Shown here piece after piece: positions 479-64,000 of a DNA stretch of 64,000 nucleotides. The position numbers and the translations under genes were made by a program. Numbering within the stretch: the stretch's first letter is position 1; every line of letters begins with the position of its first letter. The notes below the pieces were generated by a model, which did no database searches, was not told the DNA's origin, and saw only the letters and a list, made by a program, of their open reading frames with translations. Source of the stretch: Dehalococcoidia bacterium. GTDB taxonomy: Bacteria > Chloroflexota > Dehalococcoidia > Plut-88900. The stretch covers positions 2,176,001 through 2,240,000 of the forward strand of contig OZ240215.1 in the NCBI GenBank assembly GCA_965197585.1, in the 5' to 3' direction.

Positions 479-2840
479 TGCCGTTCACGTTGTCTTGTCC
501 TCCACCGTTCTCCTGGGAATCAGTCGCGGGTTCCTTCTTCAGCAACGTATTTAGGTCGAATTCCTGGCTTCCTTCTTCCCCACCAAATCTGCGCTCTTCG
601 ATATACGGCAGCACGCTATGTTTCCAAATACGTTCGACTGCAACCGTATCTAGCCCTTCTTTCATAAAGTAGCTCGGCCCTATGGCTGCGTGTCGGTCAT
701 CCTTCAGCTTTTCGTTTACTTTCTCAACCGCGTCCGCGACCCACTCCATCCCCTCAGCGTTTTCTTGCAGCCACTTGCGCAGCACACTTCTTACAGGTTT
801 ATGGTCTGGATGAAATTCCACAAAATAAAACCGTCGCCGCAGTGCCATGTCCACCAAAGCAATGGATCGGTCAGCAGTGTTCATAGTCCCGATGATGTAC
901 AGATTCTTGGGAAGCCTGAACTCTCCGTCACTGTATTGGAGCGTTGCGGGCGCATCTCTGTATTCAAGGAGGAAATACAACTCTCCTAGCACCTTTGCTA
1001 AGTTTCCCCTATTGATTTCGTCAATGATTAGATAGTGTTTCTCATCCGAAACCCTCGCCTTCTCTGCAATTTCCAGCAATGGCCCATTCCTCAGTTTGTA
1101 TACGAGATTCCCATTCTCTATGCTCGGACGAAAACCCTGCACAAAGTCCTCGTAGGCATAGGAGGGATGAAACTGGACCAATGTGACCCGATCTCCCGAC
1201 CCGGCTAGGCACCCCGCTATCTTCTGTGCAATAAACGTCTTCCCCGTCCCCGGCGGCCCTTGGAAGATGACCTGCTTTTTCTCCTCAAGCAGCGTTTGGA
1301 TTTCCTCTAGGAAAGAGACGGGCAGGAAGGTCTGCTCAGCAAGGTCATCTAGAGTTGTAGAGCTTATGGGAGGCTGTGTGTCACTCTCATCTTCCGGCCG
1401 CTCAACTCGGCCTGTCACTATTGCCCAAGCCACAGATTGCGCGTCAAGCCGATGGCGTAAGTTAACCTTCCGTTTATTTCCTTCTTCAATAAACTGGTCC
1501 AGGAATCCAAGGGCATGTTCGTACAGCACCTCCTCACTGGCGTCCTTGTCTGGTTTGTCATACCCGACTTGCTCATAGGTTCTATTAAATATGTTGACTC
1601 TAAAGGGTGGATAGTGTTCTGCATTAAGCCCCATCAATAACACGGATACAACATTAATGCGCGTTCCAGTTCCACCTATTACTTCAGTTGGGAACCGTTG
1701 GCAAAAAGCGTGTATGCGATCTGAGACCGAAGTCTCCTCTTGTGCCCAAAGTGCCTCTAGAGCTTCTTGCACCGTAACAGGAGACTCATTAATCCAATCC
1801 TGTAACTTTGACAAAGTTACATAGTGTATTAGGTTATTGTCGCTGTTTGTGAGTGCTTGCTTCAACAATAGTGGCCAATCATCCGCTCCCCTAGACATAG
1901 CATCCCGCGCTACAGCTAATTTTCCGCCTATTGCAAGCTTATAATCTATCTCTTCCTCTTCCAATGTCCCTGCATCTATATACTCCTTGGCCAGTGTTAC
2001 AAACTTATCCCAAGTGTTGGCACTCACCTTCTTGCTGTCCCTCCACTTGTAGCTAATAGCGTCCTCGTAGAAGTGGAAATCCCTTCCTAATTTCTTCTCC
2101 AGACCTGCGCGAATTTGCTGCAATTTGCGATCTACATCATCTGTCGGTTGAGTGACTAGCGTACTAAAGGCGTCGGCAACTGCACTCTTGTGGTCTTCAC
2201 TGACAATGCCTTCAAACGTGTCAGGGTGGACTAGGTGAAGTAATGCTTGTCGTTGAATGCGTGACGCATTCTGATATTTGCTAACTAGCAGGCTGCGAGG
2301 TCTAAAATCCATCAGAAATCGTTTGAATTCCCACGGAGCATCTATTATGCGTACGAGTTCACTGGGATCCTCTTGTTTCAGGCGCTCCACAAACTCGATT
2401 AGGAGACCGACTTGAAATGGACGGAATGTGTGATACGCCGTTCCAGGAGTCGCTATTCCCGGAGTTAGAGCAGCAATAAGTTCCGTTGGGATCTCTACGG
2501 GTGATGTTGACCATCCGAGAACCGTTTCAATTACGTTTCTCTCATCCGTCACACTCTTGGTGTGCACTATTAGGAAGTAGAAGTAAAGGGCCTCTCCCAT
2601 GAGTTGGTATACCTCTGGTGGGCTGTTCTCTAACTGTTTTCCCAACTTGTCCAGAAAGCTCCCATCCGTTTCGTCCGGGCTGTTCAGGAACTTCTCGTGC
2701 AAGACACCCAAATTCCTTATCGTCCAAATTGCTTTTCCCGGCGTGAACAACGACCCCTCCGACCTCAGCGCGCAATCAACCCATTCCTGAGCCGCATCGT
2801 AGACCTTCTCTACACCGTTTCCAGCCCTCCTACTTCCCAT
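459..2840 (-). CDS. mcrB: McrB-family AAA+ GTPase with extended N-terminal domains
   Basis: Walker A GPPGTGKT, QFHPSYAYEDF, Walker B IIDEINR, McrB signature MNTADRS, ALRRRF. Directly upstream of mcrC. Confidence 0.92.
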   Translation of the reverse strand: MGSRRAGNGVEKVYDAAQEWVDCALRSEGSLFTPGKAIWTIRNLGVLHEKFLNSPDETDGSFLDKLGKQLENSPPEVYQLMGEALYFYFLIVHTKSVTDERNVIETVLGWSTSPVEIPTELIAALTPGIATPGTAYHTFRPFQVGLLIEFVERLKQEDPSELVRIIDAPWEFKRFLMDFRPRSLLVSKYQNASRIQRQALLHLVHPDTFEGIVSEDHKSAVADAFSTLVTQPTDDVDRKLQQIRAGLEKKLGRDFHFYEDAISYKWRDSKKVSANTWDKFVTLAKEYIDAGTLEEEEIDYKLAIGGKLAVARDAMSRGADDWPLLLKQALTNSDNNLIHYVTLSKLQDWINESPVTVQEALEALWAQEETSVSDRIHAFCQRFPTEVIGGTGTRINVVSVLLMGLNAEHYPPFRVNIFNRTYEQVGYDKPDKDASEEVLYEHALGFLDQFIEEGNKRKVNLRHRLDAQSVAWAIVTGRVERPEDESDTQPPISSTTLDDLAEQTFLPVSFLEEIQTLLEEKKQVIFQGPPGTGKTFIAQKIAGCLAGSGDRVTLVQFHPSYAYEDFVQGFRPSIENGNLVYKLRNGPLLEIAEKARVSDEKHYLIIDEINRGNLAKVLGELYFLLEYRDAPATLQYSDGEFRLPKNLYIIGTMNTADRSIALVDMALRRRFYFVEFHPDHKPVRSVLRKWLQENAEGMEWVADAVEKVNEKLKDDRHAAIGPSYFMKEGLDTVAVERIWKHSVLPYIEERRFGGEEGSQEFDLNTLLKKEPATDSQENGGGQDNVNGNAQPES

Positions 2841-2916
2841 CGAGCCCCTCCTAGTCGATATGTTTCGGCCCCAATCTTACACCCTTTACACTCCTCCCCC
2901 ATCCACCCCCACCCCC

Positions 2917-2945
2917 TTGACCCATACAAACATATGTGCTATATT
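2917..2945 (+). promoter_or_regulatory. sigma70 promoter with overlapping LexA-like box (element copy 1)
   Basis: TTGACC-17 nt-TATATT with TGn extension. AAAC-ATAT-GTGC (2928-2939) resembles GAAC-N4-GTTC. The same layout occurs in the other two copies. Confidence 0.65.
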
Positions 2946-2949
2946 CGCC

Positions 2950-3771
2950 ACAGTCTAGACCCGACACCCACCTTAAGGAGGAACCAAAACACCAGGGAAG
3001 CCCCCGAGACCCACCCGAGGACTCAACGCCCTAGCCCATCCCAACGGCCCTCGCGCAGGCCCGAGGCTCAAGCAACAGACGCCATCTCCTCTCACCAGGG
3101 TCCCGGCTATCCCTTCCAGCATCAGGCGATGGGAGGTTCCCGGCATCCATCCGGCTAGCCAGCTCCCTATCAGCGCCCCCGTCGGGGGGCAAACCTACAT
3201 AACCGGCATAGACCTTGCCGGCCAGTCCGAACAGTCGGAATAGCGCCGACTCAAAACCAACGCACCCTTTAGGGATTCCACCGTCGTCACCGCCGGCAAG
3301 CTCCGGTCTACAAACGGCGGTCTCGGGTCCCCGCTCCCATCCCTTGGGATGGTCGAGCACTTCTGGTGGACGGGACTGCCCCACACCGAGAATATCTCGG
3401 GTCCCGCCACATCCTCTCAGAAGTCAGTGGCAAGGATTCCACCGTCGTCACCATCGGCAAGCTCCGGTCTACGAACGGCGGTCTCGGGTCCCCGCTCCCA
3501 TCCCTTGGGATGGTCGAGCACTTCTGGTGTACGGGACTGCCCCACACCGAGAAATCCTCGGGTCTCGTCCACATCCTCTCAGAAGTCAGGGGCTGTCGCA
3601 GAGAAATAGTCGACCCAACGGGTATCGACACAGGCGTCCCCGCCATCCTGCGCAAACGTCCGGGAACCTCCATCGCCGACCCTCCAAAACAAACAAAACA
3701 AACCGAAACCCCACAAGTGAACACCATCCCCCATGTATAATCCCCAAGGTCGAAGATCCGCCTAGGGCGGA
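2950..3771 (+). ncRNA. Putative large structured ncRNA, copy 1 of a dispersed family
   Basis: 5' ~190 nt homologous to 8614-8812 (minus) and 63870-64000. Long-range helix 3125-3143/3660-3677. A/C-rich tail 3678-3717. No reading frame is conserved between copies. Confidence 0.55.
3273..3589 (+). repeat. Tandem duplication, two ~155-bp units (period 161)
   Basis: GGATTCCACCGTCGTCACC...CTCTCAGAAGTCAG at 3273-3427 and 3434-3589, near identical. Confidence 0.95.
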
Positions 3772-3785
3772 AGGAGCACCCGACC

Positions 3786-4895
3786 ATGCGAGAACATCCA
3801 CTAGTCGACGTCGACAGCCACGTCCTTGAACCCATGTCCGTCTGGCAGGACTACCTCGAACCCGACCTCAGGCCCCGCGCCATACGATGGTCCACCGACG
3901 ACAACGGCCGAGAGCTCATGCTCATCGATGGCAAGCCCGCACGCCAGTTCATGCTCCGCAACGGCTGGATGGGCAACCCCGAGGTCCCCGGCGGTCGTGC
4001 CTTCGAAGACCGCGTCACCACCTCCCTAGGCGCGGCCAACGGCCCCGACCGCGTCCAGCTCCTAGACAACGAGGGCATCGACATCACCCTCCTCTACCCC
4101 ACCCTCGGCATCCAGTGGGAGCCCGAGTTCGAGGACTACAAGCTCGCCGCCGCTCACGCCCGCGCCTACAACTCCTGGATCACCGACCTCTGCAAACCCC
4201 ACTCAGACCGTCTCATTCCCGTCGCCCACGTCGTCGCTTCCGACGTCGATGAAGGAGCGGCGGAGCTGGAGCGGGCCGCGGGGCTTGGCGCACGGGGCGG
4301 CATGGTCAGCGGCAGGCCCATCAACGGCATCCCCTACGGAGACCCCTACTATGACCCCCTCTGGGGGCAGGCATCGGAATCCCGCATCCCTCTCGCCCTT
4401 CACGTCATGGGCTACCCCAGACACCTCGGCTATGACATGTACCCGGACACCAGCCCCAAAATCGCCTGGTGGGGCTTCGTCACCCTCGGCCTGGAGGTCA
4501 TCATCGGCCTCACGACACTGTTCCAGGGAGCTGTCTTCGAAAGATTCCCGGACCTGCGCCTCGTCGTGCTGGAAGCCGGGTCGGGCTGGCTGCCCTACTG
4601 GCTCGACAGGATGGACGAATACACCGAGCTCTTCACCTACGCTACATCGCTATCGATGAAGCCGACCGAGTATTTCAAACGACAGTGCTGGATATCCTTC
4701 GAACCCAGCGAAGAAATGATGCCCGAGACCATGGACTTCATCGGCGTCGACAAATTCATGTGGGCCGCCGACTACCCCCACACCGACTCCGTCGCCGAAC
4801 CCGTACGCCTCCTCACCAAGATGCTCGCTCCCCTATCCCAGGAAGACCGATGGAAAGTCCTCGGCGACACCGCCGTCAAGCTCTACGGCCTCTAG
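3786..4895 (+). CDS. Amidohydrolase_2 family metal-dependent hydrolase/decarboxylase
   Basis: N-terminal DxDSH, LYPT, ALHV, LEAGSGW, WAADYPH. RBS AAGGAG. Confidence 0.88.
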   Translation: MREHPLVDVDSHVLEPMSVWQDYLEPDLRPRAIRWSTDDNGRELMLIDGKPARQFMLRNGWMGNPEVPGGRAFEDRVTTSLGAANGPDRVQLLDNEGIDITLLYPTLGIQWEPEFEDYKLAAAHARAYNSWITDLCKPHSDRLIPVAHVVASDVDEGAAELERAAGLGARGGMVSGRPINGIPYGDPYYDPLWGQASESRIPLALHVMGYPRHLGYDMYPDTSPKIAWWGFVTLGLEVIIGLTTLFQGAVFERFPDLRLVVLEAGSGWLPYWLDRMDEYTELFTYATSLSMKPTEYFKRQCWISFEPSEEMMPETMDFIGVDKFMWAADYPHTDSVAEPVRLLTKMLAPLSQEDRWKVLGDTAVKLYGL

Positions 4896-4954
4896 CCAAC
4901 CCTCCATGGGACCCCTTGCCCATTCCTTCTTCTGGCCCGCGGGGGTGGTCTTAT

Positions 4955-4999
4955 CCCCTCTCCCTCGATGGGAGAGGGCTAGGGTGAGGGTGAGGGTGA
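4955..4999. repeat. REP-like palindrome (CCCCTCTCCC-n-GGGAGAGGG-CTAGGGTGAGGG family)
   Basis: Hairpin CCCTCTCCC-TCGAT-GGGAGAGGG. Relatives near 8912, 51435, 53714 and 63745. Confidence 0.7.
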
Positions 5000-8008: not shown

Positions 8009-8107
8009 CCGTTGGGAATTCCGACGCCGCCTATCCTATCGCCCACCCGTTCCCGGTGTCAATCTGATGTACTCGTCCGGTAGGTCAGTGACACACTGGA
8101 GTTTTCT

Positions 8108-8812
8108 TCAGTCCTCCTGAGGCGGATCCTCCAGAGGCGGATGTTCCCCGCCTACGACGGACTTGCAGCATCTTCGATTGTGGGGTTTGGGTTTCCGTTC
8201 TGTCTGTTGGGTTTTGGGTTGACGATGGAAGACGCTTGCCGGATTCGGCTCCCTATTTTTAGATAATGCGAGCTTGGAGGCGTCCCGGGAACGTGGGGAC
8301 GGGGCTCCGCCGCCGCCTAGACCTGGAAGTATGATAGGACATACGGGTCCGTCATCCGTCATAGGCTCCAATAAGGGTTGGCTGCGCTGTCCGCCGGAGG
8401 CGGATGCAGGAAGGGGAAAGTCCAGGGTCAGTTCCCCTCGCAGGAGTACGGGGTATCCGGTTCGCCGCCTGTATCCAGGAACCCGGAGTGGCGGGCGGCC
8501 CAGTTTCATTTGATGAAGCGGACGGAGAGCCGAGCGGTCCTCGGCTACGGGCTGCCCCGTTCCGCTCCATAGGTCGGGTTGCTCCGTGAGGAGACTTTTA
8601 TGTACGGTCCAGGGCGTCTTCCATCGCCTGATGGTCAGGGTAAGGGATAGCCGGGGGCCCTTGGCAGAGGAGATGGCGGCGTTCGCTTGTGCCGTGGGGC
8701 GGCGTGTAGGCCGCCCTTTGGGATGGGCTTGGACGTTGAGTCCTCGGGGGCCGGGTGGGCTTCCCTGGGTTGTGGTTACCTCCTTAAGGTGGGTGTCGGG
8801 TCTAGACTGGCC
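8108..8812 (-). ncRNA. Putative large structured ncRNA, copy 2
   Basis: Reverse strand shares CAGTCTAGACCCGACACCCACCTTAAGGAGG and downstream blocks with copy 1. Helix 8614-8628/8221-8235. A/C-rich tail 8178-8220. The interior is unrelated to copy 1. Confidence 0.55.
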
Positions 8813-8814
8813 CA

Positions 8815-8843
8815 ATAATAGAACATGTGTCTTATGAAGTCAA
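8815..8843 (-). promoter_or_regulatory. sigma70 promoter with LexA-like box (copy 2)
   Basis: TTGACT-17 nt-TATTAT on the minus strand. GAAC-ATGT-GTCT at 8821-8832. Confidence 0.65.
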
Positions 8844-8887
8844 GGGGTGGATGTCACACTTTTGGGGGGGGCACCGCCCCGGCCCTT

Positions 8888-51617: not shown

Positions 51618-52559
51618 TGCGCAAAGTTTCCGTAGAAATCCGACAGTCCATGTAAGCTCATGGACATGTCAAATCTCACACTGATAACGTTGGCCTGGGA
51701 GTTGTACGAGCAAGGGATGACAAAAGCGCAGATAGCGCGGCAGTTGGGTAAACACCGGGAGACGATCCATCTGTGGGTTCGGGGCATCCAAGAACAGGGG
51801 CTGCTGCCCTTCCTTGGGCGATACGAGCAAGCCAAGAAGGGGCCCAGGTTAGGGAGGCGGGTCGACCCGATGGTGAAGCGATGGATTTGGGCCATTAGGG
51901 AGCGGGAGGCGGGGTGCTGTGGACAGAAGATCGCCTACTTCCTGGAGCGGGAACACGGGGTACGCCTGTCAGTGCCTAAGATATATGAGATCCTGAAGGA
52001 GAAGTACATCATCCGTTCCAAGTGGAAGAAGAATCGGCGTAGAGGGCCGGTGCCCACGGCCAGCAGCCCTCGCCAGGTGGTACAGATGGACACGGTGATG
52101 TTTGGAGGCCTGTTTGCCTTCACCGGCATCGACATATACACCAGGGAGGCAGACATCCTGTTAGCCCCCTCCCTGACCGCCGCTTACGGCTGTGCCTTCC
52201 TGGAACAAGCGATGACACGGCGCTTCGATAGCAGGGTGGAGTTGATCCAAACGGACGGGGGCAGTGAGTTCAAAGAGGCCTTTGCAGAGCGGGTGTTGGC
52301 CTACTGCCAACGACACCGGGTGGCTCGGCCCTACAAGAAGAACGAGCAGGCCTACATCGAGAGCTTCAACCGGACAGTGCGGAAAGAATGTCTGGGCTGG
52401 ACCCGCTACAGCGCCCAGGACCTTCCCCAGTGCCGGAGATTAGTAGAGCAGTTCCTGGATCGGTATCACTACCACCGCCCACACCTCGCCCTCGGACTAA
52501 AACCCCCTCTCAAGAAAGGAGTCTTCCACCTGTCGGATATTTACGCATAATATTGCGCA
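51618..52559 (+). mobile_element. IS481-like insertion sequence (transposase 51660-52550)
   Basis: Imperfect ~30-bp IRs TGCGCAA..CGTA..ATCCGACAG. HTH plus DDE (QMDT, TDGGSEF, IESFNR). No target duplication seen. Confidence 0.85.
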
Positions 52560-63835: not shown

Positions 63836-63864
63836 TTGACCCATATGAACATAAGTGCTATTCT
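63836..63864 (+). promoter_or_regulatory. sigma70 promoter with LexA-like box (copy 3)
   Basis: TTGACC-17-TATTCT. GAAC-ATAA-GTGC at 63847-63858. Confidence 0.65.
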
Positions 63865-63869
63865 CTTCA

Positions 63870-64000
63870 CTGTTCGAACACCAACCCAACTATCTCAAGG
63901 AGGAACCAAAAACCCAGGGAAGCCCACTAGCCCCACCCGAGGACTCAACGCCCCAGCCCAGCCCAACGGCCCTCGCGCAGGCCTGCGGCTCAAGCAAACG
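63870..64000 (+). ncRNA. Putative structured ncRNA, copy 3 (5' part only)
   Basis: AAGGAGGAACCAAAA.CCAGGGAAGCCC...CCCGAGGACTCAACGCCC...CCCAACGGCCCTCGCGCAGGCC, nearly identical to copy 1. Confidence 0.55.

Follow-up and report, generated by a model that had tools for sequence, protein, structure and literature searches.

The three related elements found in the 64,000-nucleotide stretch analysed here (the window) belong, with a probability that we put at roughly 0.7, to a genus-restricted family of non-autonomous DDE transposons of the cut-and-paste type, which have no protein gene and carry as cargo a strong sigma-70 promoter and a predicted, ORF-free folded transcript. The element is 0.73–0.89 kb long and the predicted transcript about 0.65–0.75 kb.

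Distribution of the family

The blastn search with the 5′ scaffold (query 2912–3145) that a sequence-only reading of the window had proposed returned 57 copies in the 3.43-Mb genome under study (G000), 39 on the + strand and 18 on the − strand. The three copies noticed in that reading are present in the window with the blocks and the long-range helix ascribed to them, and the family is far above chance. Dozens of copies per genome were found in 8/8 congeners (G001, G002 and G005 are congeners referred to below) and no copy in any of 3 other genera of the same taxonomic family. A profile of the 5′ scaffold block (R1) matched in 5/5 sampled congeners and in G000, and in 0/145 other genomes of the class in the genome sample under Infernal's stricter filters. 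A lone blastn match in G020 was rejected as an outside relative, being a 35-nt chance match within coding-like sequence. As judged from these genomes, the family is restricted to one genus of sponge-associated bacteria.

The neighbours of the elements are ordinary metabolic genes, with no linked partner protein gene. By a crude count made without gene calls, the longest open frame within the next 1.2 kb runs in the direction of the element in 41/57 copies. Cumulative GC skew peaks near 1.06 Mb and is lowest near 2.65 Mb, C being in net excess, and the strands of the 57 copies followed neither replichore model cleanly.

Structure of the copies in the window

Copy 1 lies on the + strand. Its promoter (2917–2945) consists of a −35 TTGACC, a 17-nt spacer and a TG-extended −10 TATATT, and is the sole promoter-like site in 2700–3900 (10/12 matches, 0.3 expected); the promoter is kept in 57/57 copies. 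The 5′ leader (2953–2981) has the palindrome GTCTAGAC at the predicted start (2953–2960) and then a Shine–Dalgarno-like AAGGAGG (2975–2981), which is followed by no start codon. The sequence of the palindrome differs among copies with its palindromy kept (GTCTAGAC, GTTCGAAC, GACTAGCTAGTC and GATTGGCCAATC). The conserved, C-rich 5′ scaffold (2992–3124) contains CCAGGGAAGCCC from 2992, CCCGAGGACTCAACG at 3014–3028, a hairpin at 3045–3063 and CGCCATCTCCTCT at 3080–3092. The long-range helix that had been proposed to close the interior was confirmed in copy 1, where GGCGATGGGAGGTTCCCGG (3125–3143) pairs with CCGGGAACCTCCATCGCC (3660–3677) around a class 5 interior (3144–3659) holding a tandem pair of a unit of about 165 nt (3264–3431 and 3434–3593). 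An A/C-rich tail (3678–3716), terminating in AAACCCCACAA, reaches the element boundary, and both inverted ends are missing. The locus had been placed at 2912–3771, but the end at 3771 is too far downstream, as homology to the element-free sequence of G005 resumes at 3721. The hairpin at 3749–3770 is part of the leader of the downstream gene and lies outside the element.

Copy 2, on the − strand, has a promoter module (8815–8857) made of GTGACA (8852–8857), a −35 TTGACT (8838–8843) and a −10 TATTAT (8815–8820). The leader and 5′ scaffold follow (8629–8807), with GTCTAGAC at 8800–8807 and AAGGAGG at 8779–8785, and then the long-range helix (8221–8628), in which 8613–8628 pairs with 8221–8235 around a class 2 interior (8236–8612). 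Beyond the A/C-rich tail (8178–8220) are small hairpin modules with GGAGGA (8111–8177; TCGAAGAT...CCGCCTCTGGAGGA...), inserted optionally between CAA and CTGAA. The 3′ terminal module (8068–8110) consists of CTGAAGAAAA and the 3′ inverted end (8068–8099), which finishes ...GAGTACA. The element reaches as far as 8068, not 8108. Copies 1 and 2 fall into different interior classes, in agreement with the earlier description of a shared scaffold with unrelated interiors. Copy 3 (63836–64000, +) has its −35 at 63836–63841 and its −10 at 63859–63864, the palindrome GTTCGAAC at 63872–63879 and AAGGAGG at 63897–63903, and then the start of the scaffold. It extends about 620 nt past the window end, has a class 4 interior and keeps neither inverted end.

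Ends and target duplications of a DNA transposon

Intact copies have imperfect inverted ends of about 32 bp with TG...CA termini. The ends read TGATCCCGTTC...GTGACA at the 5′ side and ...GTGTCAC...GAACGAGTACA at the 3′ side (termini TGA.../...ACA), and aligning the 5′ end with the reverse-complemented 3′ end gave a gapped score with a shuffle p of 0.0025. Both ends are kept in 14/57 copies, between which the element measures 734–885 bp, and the 3′ end is kept in 25/57. Another 32/57 copies have lost both ends, yet retain promoter, scaffold and helix. Among the 14 copies with both ends, the 5-bp target duplication is perfect (5/5) in 7 and at least 4/5 in 11, compared with 1/532 perfect in shifted registers and 0/182 with partners taken from other copies. 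A filled site in G000 reads ...GTTAAA GCCTC, the element, and GCCTC ACCGCAG..., and the sister species G002 has a clean empty site (...GTTAAAGCCTCACCGCAG...) with a single GCCTC. This site is occupied in 1/9 genomes of the genus, and the copy neighbouring it is common to G000, G005 and G002 only.

That the family moves by DNA transposition is shown by the inverted ends, together with the 5-bp target duplications and the clean empty site. For copies 1 and 3, which are without ends, we infer transposition from membership of the family. The sequence-only reading had reported neither terminal inverted repeats nor target site duplications. The family has both, and within the window copy 2 keeps the 3′ inverted end and copy 1 has lost both ends. 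The element is a non-autonomous DDE transposon and not a mobile RNA.

Insertion upstream of −35 boxes

Exactly 5 bp separate the insertion point from a TTGAC −35 hexamer downstream of it, and the 3′ end always faces the resident promoter. The element's own predicted transcription is therefore directed towards the resident promoter. Positions +6 to +8 past the 3′ end are T, T and G in 22, 20 and 21 of 25 copies, respectively, and an exact TTG occurs at the +6 offset in 15/25 copies, compared with 2 or fewer at any of 39 other offsets. In copy 2, the target (8057–8067, −) consists of TCAGA (8063–8067) and then the resident −35 TTGACA (8057–8062), which belongs to ChsH2-like and thiolase-like genes. 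Both TCAGA and TTGACA are found in the element-free G001, so that TTGACA is native.

The −35 position could partly mirror the survival of harmless insertions. The spacing of exactly 5 bp favours choice of the target by the enzyme, and the feature recognised is perhaps either the TTGAC DNA itself or promoter-bound sigma factor or RNA polymerase. In full-text literature searches, no account came up of transposons that select, in a single orientation, the positions immediately upstream of a −35 box.

Candidate transposases

The genome has 29 rve matches. An IS481-like IS of 1056 bp is present in 19 copies with the 5-bp duplication ATTCC, and its left end is identical to the element's 3′ end at 20/32 positions, with 0/2000 shuffles reaching the score. 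A clear match to a known IS end was named in the sequence-only reading as a finding that would speak against a new RNA family, and this one is partial, concerning the 3′ end at 20/32. The 1056-bp IS targets a REP-like site between GTCATTCC and GAGG, not −35 boxes, and the end identity may be too low for cross-mobilisation. An autonomous, IS481-like IS with a 423-aa rve gene, which has 11 intact copies in G005, docks at −35 boxes: 10/12 intact copies in G000, G001 and G005 read GAAGTCATGCG-N5-TTGAC. Its ends are unrelated to those of the element. In one G000 copy this gene is situated between the element's 5′ end and −35, and it adjoins 9/12 scaffolds. We read it as an independent IS, and not as the element's own transposase, on three grounds: it has inverted ends of about 60 bp and a 5-bp duplication of its own, the adjoining scaffolds differ (91–147 bits) although its copies are identical, and it is also present at promoters of the sister family and elsewhere.

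A gene-bearing element with the same ends was not found in G000, where end-like motifs are confined to the elements, one copy interrupted by an IS, and a single solo end. We propose that an IS481-like rve transposase moves the element in trans. For this role the genus has two active candidates, one with a 20/32-identical end and 5-bp duplications and the other docking upstream of TTGAC. A non-autonomous mobile RNA, or a template for an enzyme encoded in trans, had been suggested earlier, together with a search for a co-occurring reverse transcriptase or nuclease. RVT_1 (PF00078) gave 0 matches and 0 candidates in the genome and Cas12f1-like_TNB (PF07282, the TnpB zinc-ribbon) gave 0 matches; retro-mobility and a TnpB guide RNA were rejected on these counts, and the suggestion gives way to DNA transposition.

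The predicted transcript and its possible role

All three frames are interrupted by stops in 43 of the 45 copies that could be scored, and the earlier statement that the copies have no common frame holds. The distance from AAGGAGG to GCGATGG ranges from 145 to 183 nt with all residues modulo 3 represented, only 2/45 copies keep the frame that ends at the conserved CTGAA TGA uninterrupted from AAGGAGG onwards, and the median open runs in the three frames are 50, 39 and 46 codons. The 235-aa ORF of copy 2 and the 204-aa ORF in the interior of copy 1 were rejected as coding genes and are chance open frames in T-poor sequence. By eye, the latter is out of register with the sister-family frame, which has a TAG in copy 1.

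At gathering thresholds, Rfam 15 gave only tRNA in the window, and SRP RNA outside the element at 20 loci; scans at E-values from ≤0.5 to 10 gave no match inside the elements. The view that the elements match no recognised RNA family therefore stands. Both helix strands were located in 56/57 copies, with a span of 282–527 nt. With its own partner the helix has 19.7 pairs (−33.6 kcal/mol), and with the partner from another class 17.6 pairs (−27.4 kcal/mol). The first 11 bp are invariant and the extension is compensated between interior classes. The class 2 fold has 122 predicted pairs (29 copies, 4 species), in which changes are mostly between G·C and G·U or between A·U and G·U with few broken cells, and only 1/122 shows a two-sided change. 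For copy 1 the fold scores z = −4.11 relative to 20 shuffled sequences, and the 5′ scaffold has almost no supported structure. Taken together, the data give moderate support for RNA folding of the elements, with thin covariation.

The transcript would start about 7 nt after the −10, with the hairpin and the Shine–Dalgarno-like AAGGAGG as 5′ stabilisers, and would then pass through the C-rich scaffold to a 17–20-bp helix that closes one interchangeable interior. It would end in the A/C-rich, G-poor tail, which we interpret as an entry site for Rho, a factor that the genome encodes. In three sponge metatranscriptome libraries, contigs lie over the copy 1 and copy 2 interiors but not over the flanks, with no strand or end information, and stretches without such contig cover permit no inference. 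A run of unrecorded kind covers the whole stretch and its flanks, with the elements 10–50 times deeper than the flanks, and was taken as DNA because the flanks are covered too. Since this DNA-type run is likewise deeper on the elements, DNA carry-over explains the pattern of the RNA libraries equally well.

Our best guess is that the RNA cargo has a cis role at the docked promoter, as a mobile promoter, leader or insulator module, and the main alternative is a trans-acting riboregulator. In its strong form, which we regard as possible but rather unlikely, this alternative takes the elements as free-standing genes for trans-acting structured RNAs (a sponge, decoy, protein scaffold or riboregulator), with the transposon ends a mere vehicle; scaffold and tail would bind a common partner and the interior would confer specificity. 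It could account for the invariant unpaired scaffold blocks in all copies and species, such as CCCGAGGACTCAACG, for the conserved A/C-rich tail, for the promoter close to consensus and for the retained units in copies that have lost both ends. The distinct interior classes are each more than 90% conserved across four species, and the copy 2 orthologue in G002 is better conserved (interior 94.7%, scaffold 95.7% identical) than the flanking genes (89–92%), although this high identity could come from recent spread or gene conversion and not from selection. However, the complements of five conserved unpaired motifs showed no recurrent site or enrichment outside the elements, no partner protein gene is linked to them, the scaffold is limited to one genus, and the RNA-library cover is the one that DNA carry-over explains as well. 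Fifty-seven near-redundant genes for a single trans function would also be unusual.

The ORF-bearing sister family

A sister family of 14 copies shares with these elements the promoter module, the 5′ hairpin and the ATGGAAGG.../...CCTTCCAT helix, and combines them with a Shine–Dalgarno sequence, an ATG and a long ORF. The ORF-free elements might then be a frame-broken offshoot of a translated gene family whose RNA structure is merely inherited, which we think improbable. In its favour, the sister-family frame from the ATG is open for 220–455 codons in 13/14 copies, 8/14 of the ORFs end at conserved motifs including CAACTGAAT, which is a 3′ motif of the ORF-free family as well, indel runs are 0 modulo 3 in 152/173 pairwise counts, and public data hold 459 called homologues. 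The sister family's 165-nt (55-codon) unit lies inside the copy 1 interior, and in copy 2 the stretch between AAGGAGG and the terminal TGA is by chance uninterrupted. However, in the ORF-free family AAGGAGG is followed by no start codon, none of the frames is preferentially open, and indels are not multiples of 3 while the scaffold is still strongly conserved. Sister-family substitutions are flat across codon positions (849, 821 and 887), its ORF has no Pfam match, and AlphaFold gave a mean pLDDT of 49.7 and a pTM of 0.12 with no secondary structure, all of which casts doubt on a functional, folded protein as ancestor. A puzzle in its own right, the sister family keeps a long frame open with no sign of a folded protein.

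Exchange of interiors

The interiors fall into at least 7 interchangeable classes. At the copy 2 site in G005, the interior has been replaced at the orthologous locus, and nested repeats within the interiors also occur in the sister family. Copies swap their interiors via recombination across the conserved flanks and through the nested small repeats. The earlier wording, a scaffold that displays variable modules, is apt as a description and goes no further than that, given interiors exchanged at orthologous loci and nested repeats.

Purely selfish DNA, with an incidental or element-serving promoter, an interior that is a dump of nested palindromic repeats, and a long-range "helix" formed by the inverted ends of a nested inner element, is a reading that we give little weight: REP-like hairpins and the 165-nt unit of the interiors occur elsewhere too (37 matches outside the elements for a class 1 segment; the unit at 20 places, some tandem), small hairpin modules are inserted at many places and the invariant helix core GGCGATGGAAG/CTTCCATCGCC resembles paired inverted ends, but 0/56 copies join scaffold directly to tail, whereas empty scaffolds would be expected from an inner mobile element, the helix extension shows compensation from class to class, G·U-type variation fits folding of a sense-strand RNA and not a DNA duplex, and copies without ends keep promoter, leader palindrome and scaffold.

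Discussion

Promoter-carrying bacterial MITEs, non-autonomous elements with terminal inverted repeats such as Correia (CREE) of Neisseria, are a known counterpart of the transposon family described here, and are usually under about 0.5 kb. Like MITEs, our element has no transposase gene, has terminal inverted repeats, short target duplications and many intergenic copies, and is expected to affect neighbouring genes; mobilisation in trans by a resident IS is presumed. Unlike MITEs, it is larger (734–885 bp), beyond miniature size, and about 90% of it is a promoter-driven, conserved folded unit (the predicted transcript) with exchangeable interiors. It also differs in inserting at a fixed distance and orientation from the −35 hexamer and in having as its closest end match to a resident IS the 20/32 with the IS481-like left end. 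MITE-type elements are the subject of a review and a survey (PMC10969869, PMC11602168).

With the TG...CA termini, the 5-bp duplication and the 3′ end identity to a resident IS, the element also resembles the IS481 family, in which an rve DDE transposase acts on TGT...ACA ends and makes short duplications, but it has no internal transposase gene. Of the two resident ISs compared, the 1056-bp IS481-like one differs in its REP-like target, and the 423-aa one shares the −35 docking and not the ends.

Structured RNAs borne by transposons are known from IS200/IS605 (omega-RNA, or HEARO, with IscB or TnpB, and the ORF-less PATE derivatives) and from IS110 (bridge RNA). In these systems, as in ours, a large structured non-coding RNA (a predicted one here) travels in a transposable element, with copies free of protein genes included. 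Unlike omega-RNA and HEARO, our element has no Rfam match and its genome no Cas12f1-like_TNB match; its DDE-type inverted ends and 5-bp duplications are lacking in both IS200/605 and IS110, and there is no sign that its RNA guides anything. OLE, GOLLD, ROOL and raiA are large "ornate" bacterial RNAs of unknown function. The predicted transcript is likewise several hundred nucleotides long, hairpin-dense and intergenic with its own promoter, but does not match their Rfam models, and 57 copies per genome, one genus, unrelated interiors in one family and transposon ends set it apart. The eukaryotic retrotransposons Ty3 and Ty1 integrate in a promoter-directed manner at Pol III genes. Here the analogy is limited to target choice, a fixed short distance upstream of the transcription start region with the coding sequence spared; our element is a case of DNA transposition in a bacterium.

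A broader and tentative reading, which we think doubtful as it stands, is a guild of DDE transposons with promoter-directed integration, formed by the autonomous IS and the RNA-bearing family, whose cargo is a functional modular RNA acting on docked promoters or in trans. If this were true, a constant scaffold with exchangeable folded domains would rewire or insulate docked promoters, or work in trans.

A gene-less transposon in which nearly the whole length is given over to a conserved, folded RNA, driven by a promoter and made of domains that can be exchanged, lies outside the usual picture of MITEs, and such a cargo raises the question of how the RNA benefits the element or the host. Should the RNA be untranscribed or functionless, what is left is a MITE-like element of uncultured sponge symbionts that is site-specific and unusually large. 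Annotation of the family is useful because gene callers make hundreds of hypothetical proteins from related copies. Selection of targets upstream of the −35 box in a single orientation would be a new kind in bacteria, and elements that dock in this way would suit promoter tagging as a natural tool. Such docking would show that mobile DNA can spread without breaking genes while controlling the regions upstream of promoters.

Element structure and copy number

All three copies that the sequence-only reading had marked in the window are present: copy 1 at 2912-3716 (+), copy 2 at 8068-8857 (-) and copy 3 from 63836 (+) past the window end. In copy 1, TTGACC-17-TATATT is the sole promoter-like site in 2700-3900 (10/12 matches, 0.3 expected). 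This promoter is followed by the palindrome GTCTAGAC, by an AAGGAGG that has no start codon after it and by conserved C-rich blocks. Positions 3125-3143 pair with 3660-3677 (+), and the A/C tail ends at 3716 (+). A blastn search with 2912-3145 as the query found 57 copies in the 3.43-Mb single-contig source genome (G000), 39 on the + strand and 18 on the - strand. All-against-all comparison of the copies revealed three zones, a 5' block common to all, an interior common to 1-15 others and a tail common to 10-46.

The interiors form seven classes of 6-12 copies, with three singletons and one unclassified copy, and repeats found elsewhere in the genome also occur inside them. At the copy 2 site, tail and scaffold in the congener G005 match those of G000 but enclose an interior with no similarity (475 nt, vs 373 nt in G000), and the interior in G002 is that of G000. 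Upstream of an amidohydrolase gene, G000 and G002 carry different element classes, and G005, G001 and G007 carry none.

Dozens of copies occur in each of the 8/8 other genomes of the genus, and the element was found in 0/3 other genera of the family. A scaffold sequence profile matched in 5/5 sampled congeners and G000, and in 0/145 other sampled genomes of the class under stricter filters. The single match outside the genus was a 35-nt chance match, not a relative. Runs containing element sequence include sponge metatranscriptomes.

Several small repeats were also observed. A REP-like palindrome at window 4953-4993, just past the amidohydrolase gene, reads CCCCTCTCCC...GGGAGAGGG, then CTAGGGTGAGGGTGA. 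In the sequencing runs it is covered hundreds of times more deeply than its flanks (10,507 vs ~30-130 in run X1), and loose ends occur on either side. This short and very abundant repeat also flanks other elements and ISs. A tiny hairpin module, (G)TCGAAGAT(GGAACAT)CCGCC-N3-GG(C/A)GG, lies at window 3749-3770, 8111-8177 and many other loci. It is inserted in 5' scaffolds, follows tails, is nested in other repeats and forms part of the amidohydrolase 5' leader, where it is conserved in the element-free G005. Arrays of an 11-12-nt unit containing CAATCAA (L043 ~1330-1430 in G005, L044 in G001, L047 in G007, L111 2940-3060 and L055) are found in relatives upstream of promoters or transcribed from them. 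One such site is the position of copy 1 in G000, and one array follows a promoter at which the second IS described below (423-aa protein) has docked. On the + strand of G000, C outnumbers G overall (1,056,597 vs 975,422), and the cumulative GC skew has a maximum at ~1.06 Mb and a minimum at ~2.65 Mb, with very unequal arm slopes.

Non-coding character and predicted RNA structure

The element is a conserved unit that is headed by a promoter, lacks an ORF and has a closing helix. All three frames hold stops in 43/45 scorable copies, with median open runs of 50, 39 and 46 codons. The spacing from AAGGAGG to GCGATGG is 145-183 nt with every residue mod 3 represented, and only 2/45 copies are free of stops between AAGGAGG and the conserved CTGAA TGA in the frame that this TGA closes. 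The element matches no Rfam family.

The closing helix, GGCGATGGAAG.../...CTTCCATCGCC, was found in nearly every copy. Its core is invariant and its extension is class-specific (ACGC:GCGT, GTCC:GGAC, GTTCCCGG:CCGGGAAC), with one double change within a class, GACACT:AGTGTC. The 5' strand forms 19.7 pairs with its own 3' strand (-33.6 kcal/mol), compared with 17.6 pairs (-27.4) with the 3' strand of another class. By eye, sense-strand G·U occurs in the core in ~10 copies and A·C in 2. The class 2 fold (29 copies, four species) has 122 predicted pairs. Most of the variation in them is of the type G·C<->G·U or A·U<->G·U; broken cells are few, and a single pair shows two-sided change. The copy 1 fold has z = -4.11 against 20 shuffles, and the 5' scaffold has little supported structure of its own. 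Between the copy 2 orthologues of G000 and G002, the interior is 94.7% and the scaffold 95.7% identical; the flanking genes are 89-92% identical.

Three RNA libraries yielded contigs that map to the interiors of both copy 1 (nearly identically) and copy 2 and leave the flanks uncovered. A run of unrecorded kind, taken as DNA, is likewise far deeper there, so that carried-over DNA would account for this coverage as well as transcription would.

Transposition and target choice

The element is a non-autonomous DDE-type DNA transposon that docks at -35 boxes. The sequence-only reading had reported neither terminal inverted repeats nor a target site duplication, and this has to be revised. One subfamily has a sharp 5' boundary at TGATCCCGTTCACATAGAGGGGTGACAT..., about half of the copies have the 3' terminus ...GTGTCACTAATCTACCGAACGAGTACA, and the two ends are imperfect inverted repeats (shuffle p = 0.0025). 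The 5 bp flanking the two ends are identical in 7 of the 14 copies that retain both ends and match at at least 4/5 positions in 11/14; shifted registers gave 1/532 perfect matches and partners from other copies 0/182. The site of the G000 copy at 3361685-3362430 is without the element in all 8 congeners. It reads ...GTTAAAGCCTCACCGCAG... when empty in G002 and ...GTTAAA GCCTC [element] GCCTC ACCGCAG... when filled in G000. A neighbouring copy is common to only G000, G005 and G002. In the genome, rve, a transposase domain, has 29 matches, and RVT_1 and Cas12f1-like_TNB have none.

Outside the 3' end, the 25 copies having that end show N5 and then TTGAC, with T22, T20 and G21 of 25 at +6 to +8. 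Exact TTG stands at the +6 offset in 15/25 and in at most 2 at any other of 40 offsets, and a -10-like hexamer often lies ~17 nt beyond TTGAC. The copy 2 site in G001, free of the element there, reads ...GGTGTCAATCTGA|ACGG.... This shows that TCAGA + TTGACA at copy 2 is native and that the element's last bases are ...GAGTACA, precisely up to window 8068. The TTGAC spacing and this native flank place the element 5 bp upstream of a resident -35 box, pointing toward the box. For two copies, near 1531400 and 2398900 in G000, the docked promoter is that of a tRNA gene. The genes neighbouring elements are ordinary, and no trans target was found. Full-text literature searches turned up no account of an element of this kind or of insertion directed to -35 boxes.

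Two further loci were observed. A bacterial large SRP RNA (187 bits; L021 1111-1377 (-), ~G000:C1:1427695-1427961) lies just upstream of one copy. A solo 37-nt element 5' end (TGATCCCGTTCACATAGAGGGGTGACATCACCCCCTTG) at G000:C1:3404961-3404997 adjoins the promoter of groES-groEL, and a CIRCE-like inverted repeat, TTAGCACTC-N9-GAGTGCTAA, lies downstream of this end.

Candidate enzymes and an ORF-bearing relative

No autonomous element sharing the ends of the present family was detected. A 1056-bp IS481-like IS with a 320-aa transposase has 19 near-identical copies in G000, one of them at C1:1248220-1249275; no copy was confirmed in the window. Its ends are TGTAAGTGTTAGG.../...CCTGACATCCACA, and it targets the REP-like GTCATTCC|GAGGCTCCGCGAGGAATC with a 5-bp ATTCC duplication. 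Its left end is identical to the element 3' end at 20/32 positions, a score reached by 0/2000 shuffles.

A second IS encodes a 423-aa, distantly IS481-like rve protein and has ~60-bp inverted ends containing repeated GGTTACC motifs. It has one copy in G000 (C1:659325-660647; L015/L101), one in G001 (L103) and 11 intact copies in G005 (loci L102, L104-L112). In 10/12 intact copies (L101-L112), N5 and then TTGAC lie directly beyond its right end; this count omits one further broken G005 copy. Nine of the 12 lie at a fixed distance from a present-family scaffold, two at promoters of an ORF-bearing sister family and one at another promoter. Most of the -35 boxes docked belong to promoters of the RNA elements themselves. 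The flanking 5-mers match at 5/5, 5/5, 4/5 and 3/5 positions in the four junction pairs read. Its ends are unrelated to those of the element, and we regard it as an independent IS that docks in the same manner rather than as a gene of the element. A different transposase type, with an rve match at window 52062-52337 (+) within a 304-codon open frame, also occurs at G000:492121.

The sister family has 14 copies, for example G000:C1 ~1445780-1446640 (L095 383-1246 +) and 13 further copies such as L096-L100, with none in the window. The ~165-nt tandem unit of copy 1 also occurs within it. Like the present family it has the promoter module, the 5' hairpin style and a helix, ATGGAAGG.../...CCTTCCAT, but it carries AAAGGAGTCCCATG (SD+ATG). 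From this ATG, 13/14 copies have an uninterrupted frame of 220-455 codons, and this frame is usually the longest of six; 8/14 ORFs end at conserved motifs. Indel runs are multiples of 3 in 152/173 pair counts, which are non-independent, and substitutions are spread evenly across the three codon positions (849, 821, 887). Neither the ORF nor the 459 homologues called in public data, none of them named, has a Pfam domain. AlphaFold with 38 sequences predicted no secondary structure, with a mean pLDDT of 49.7 and a pTM of 0.12. The open frame is maintained with no evident protein fold.

Proposed mechanism

An IS481-like enzyme may mobilise the element. The 5' hairpin and AAGGAGG could act as RNA stabilisers; the Bacillus STAB-SD offers a precedent. 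The A/C-rich tail may serve as an entry site for Rho, which is present in the genome. The element may also exert an effect in cis on the docked promoter.
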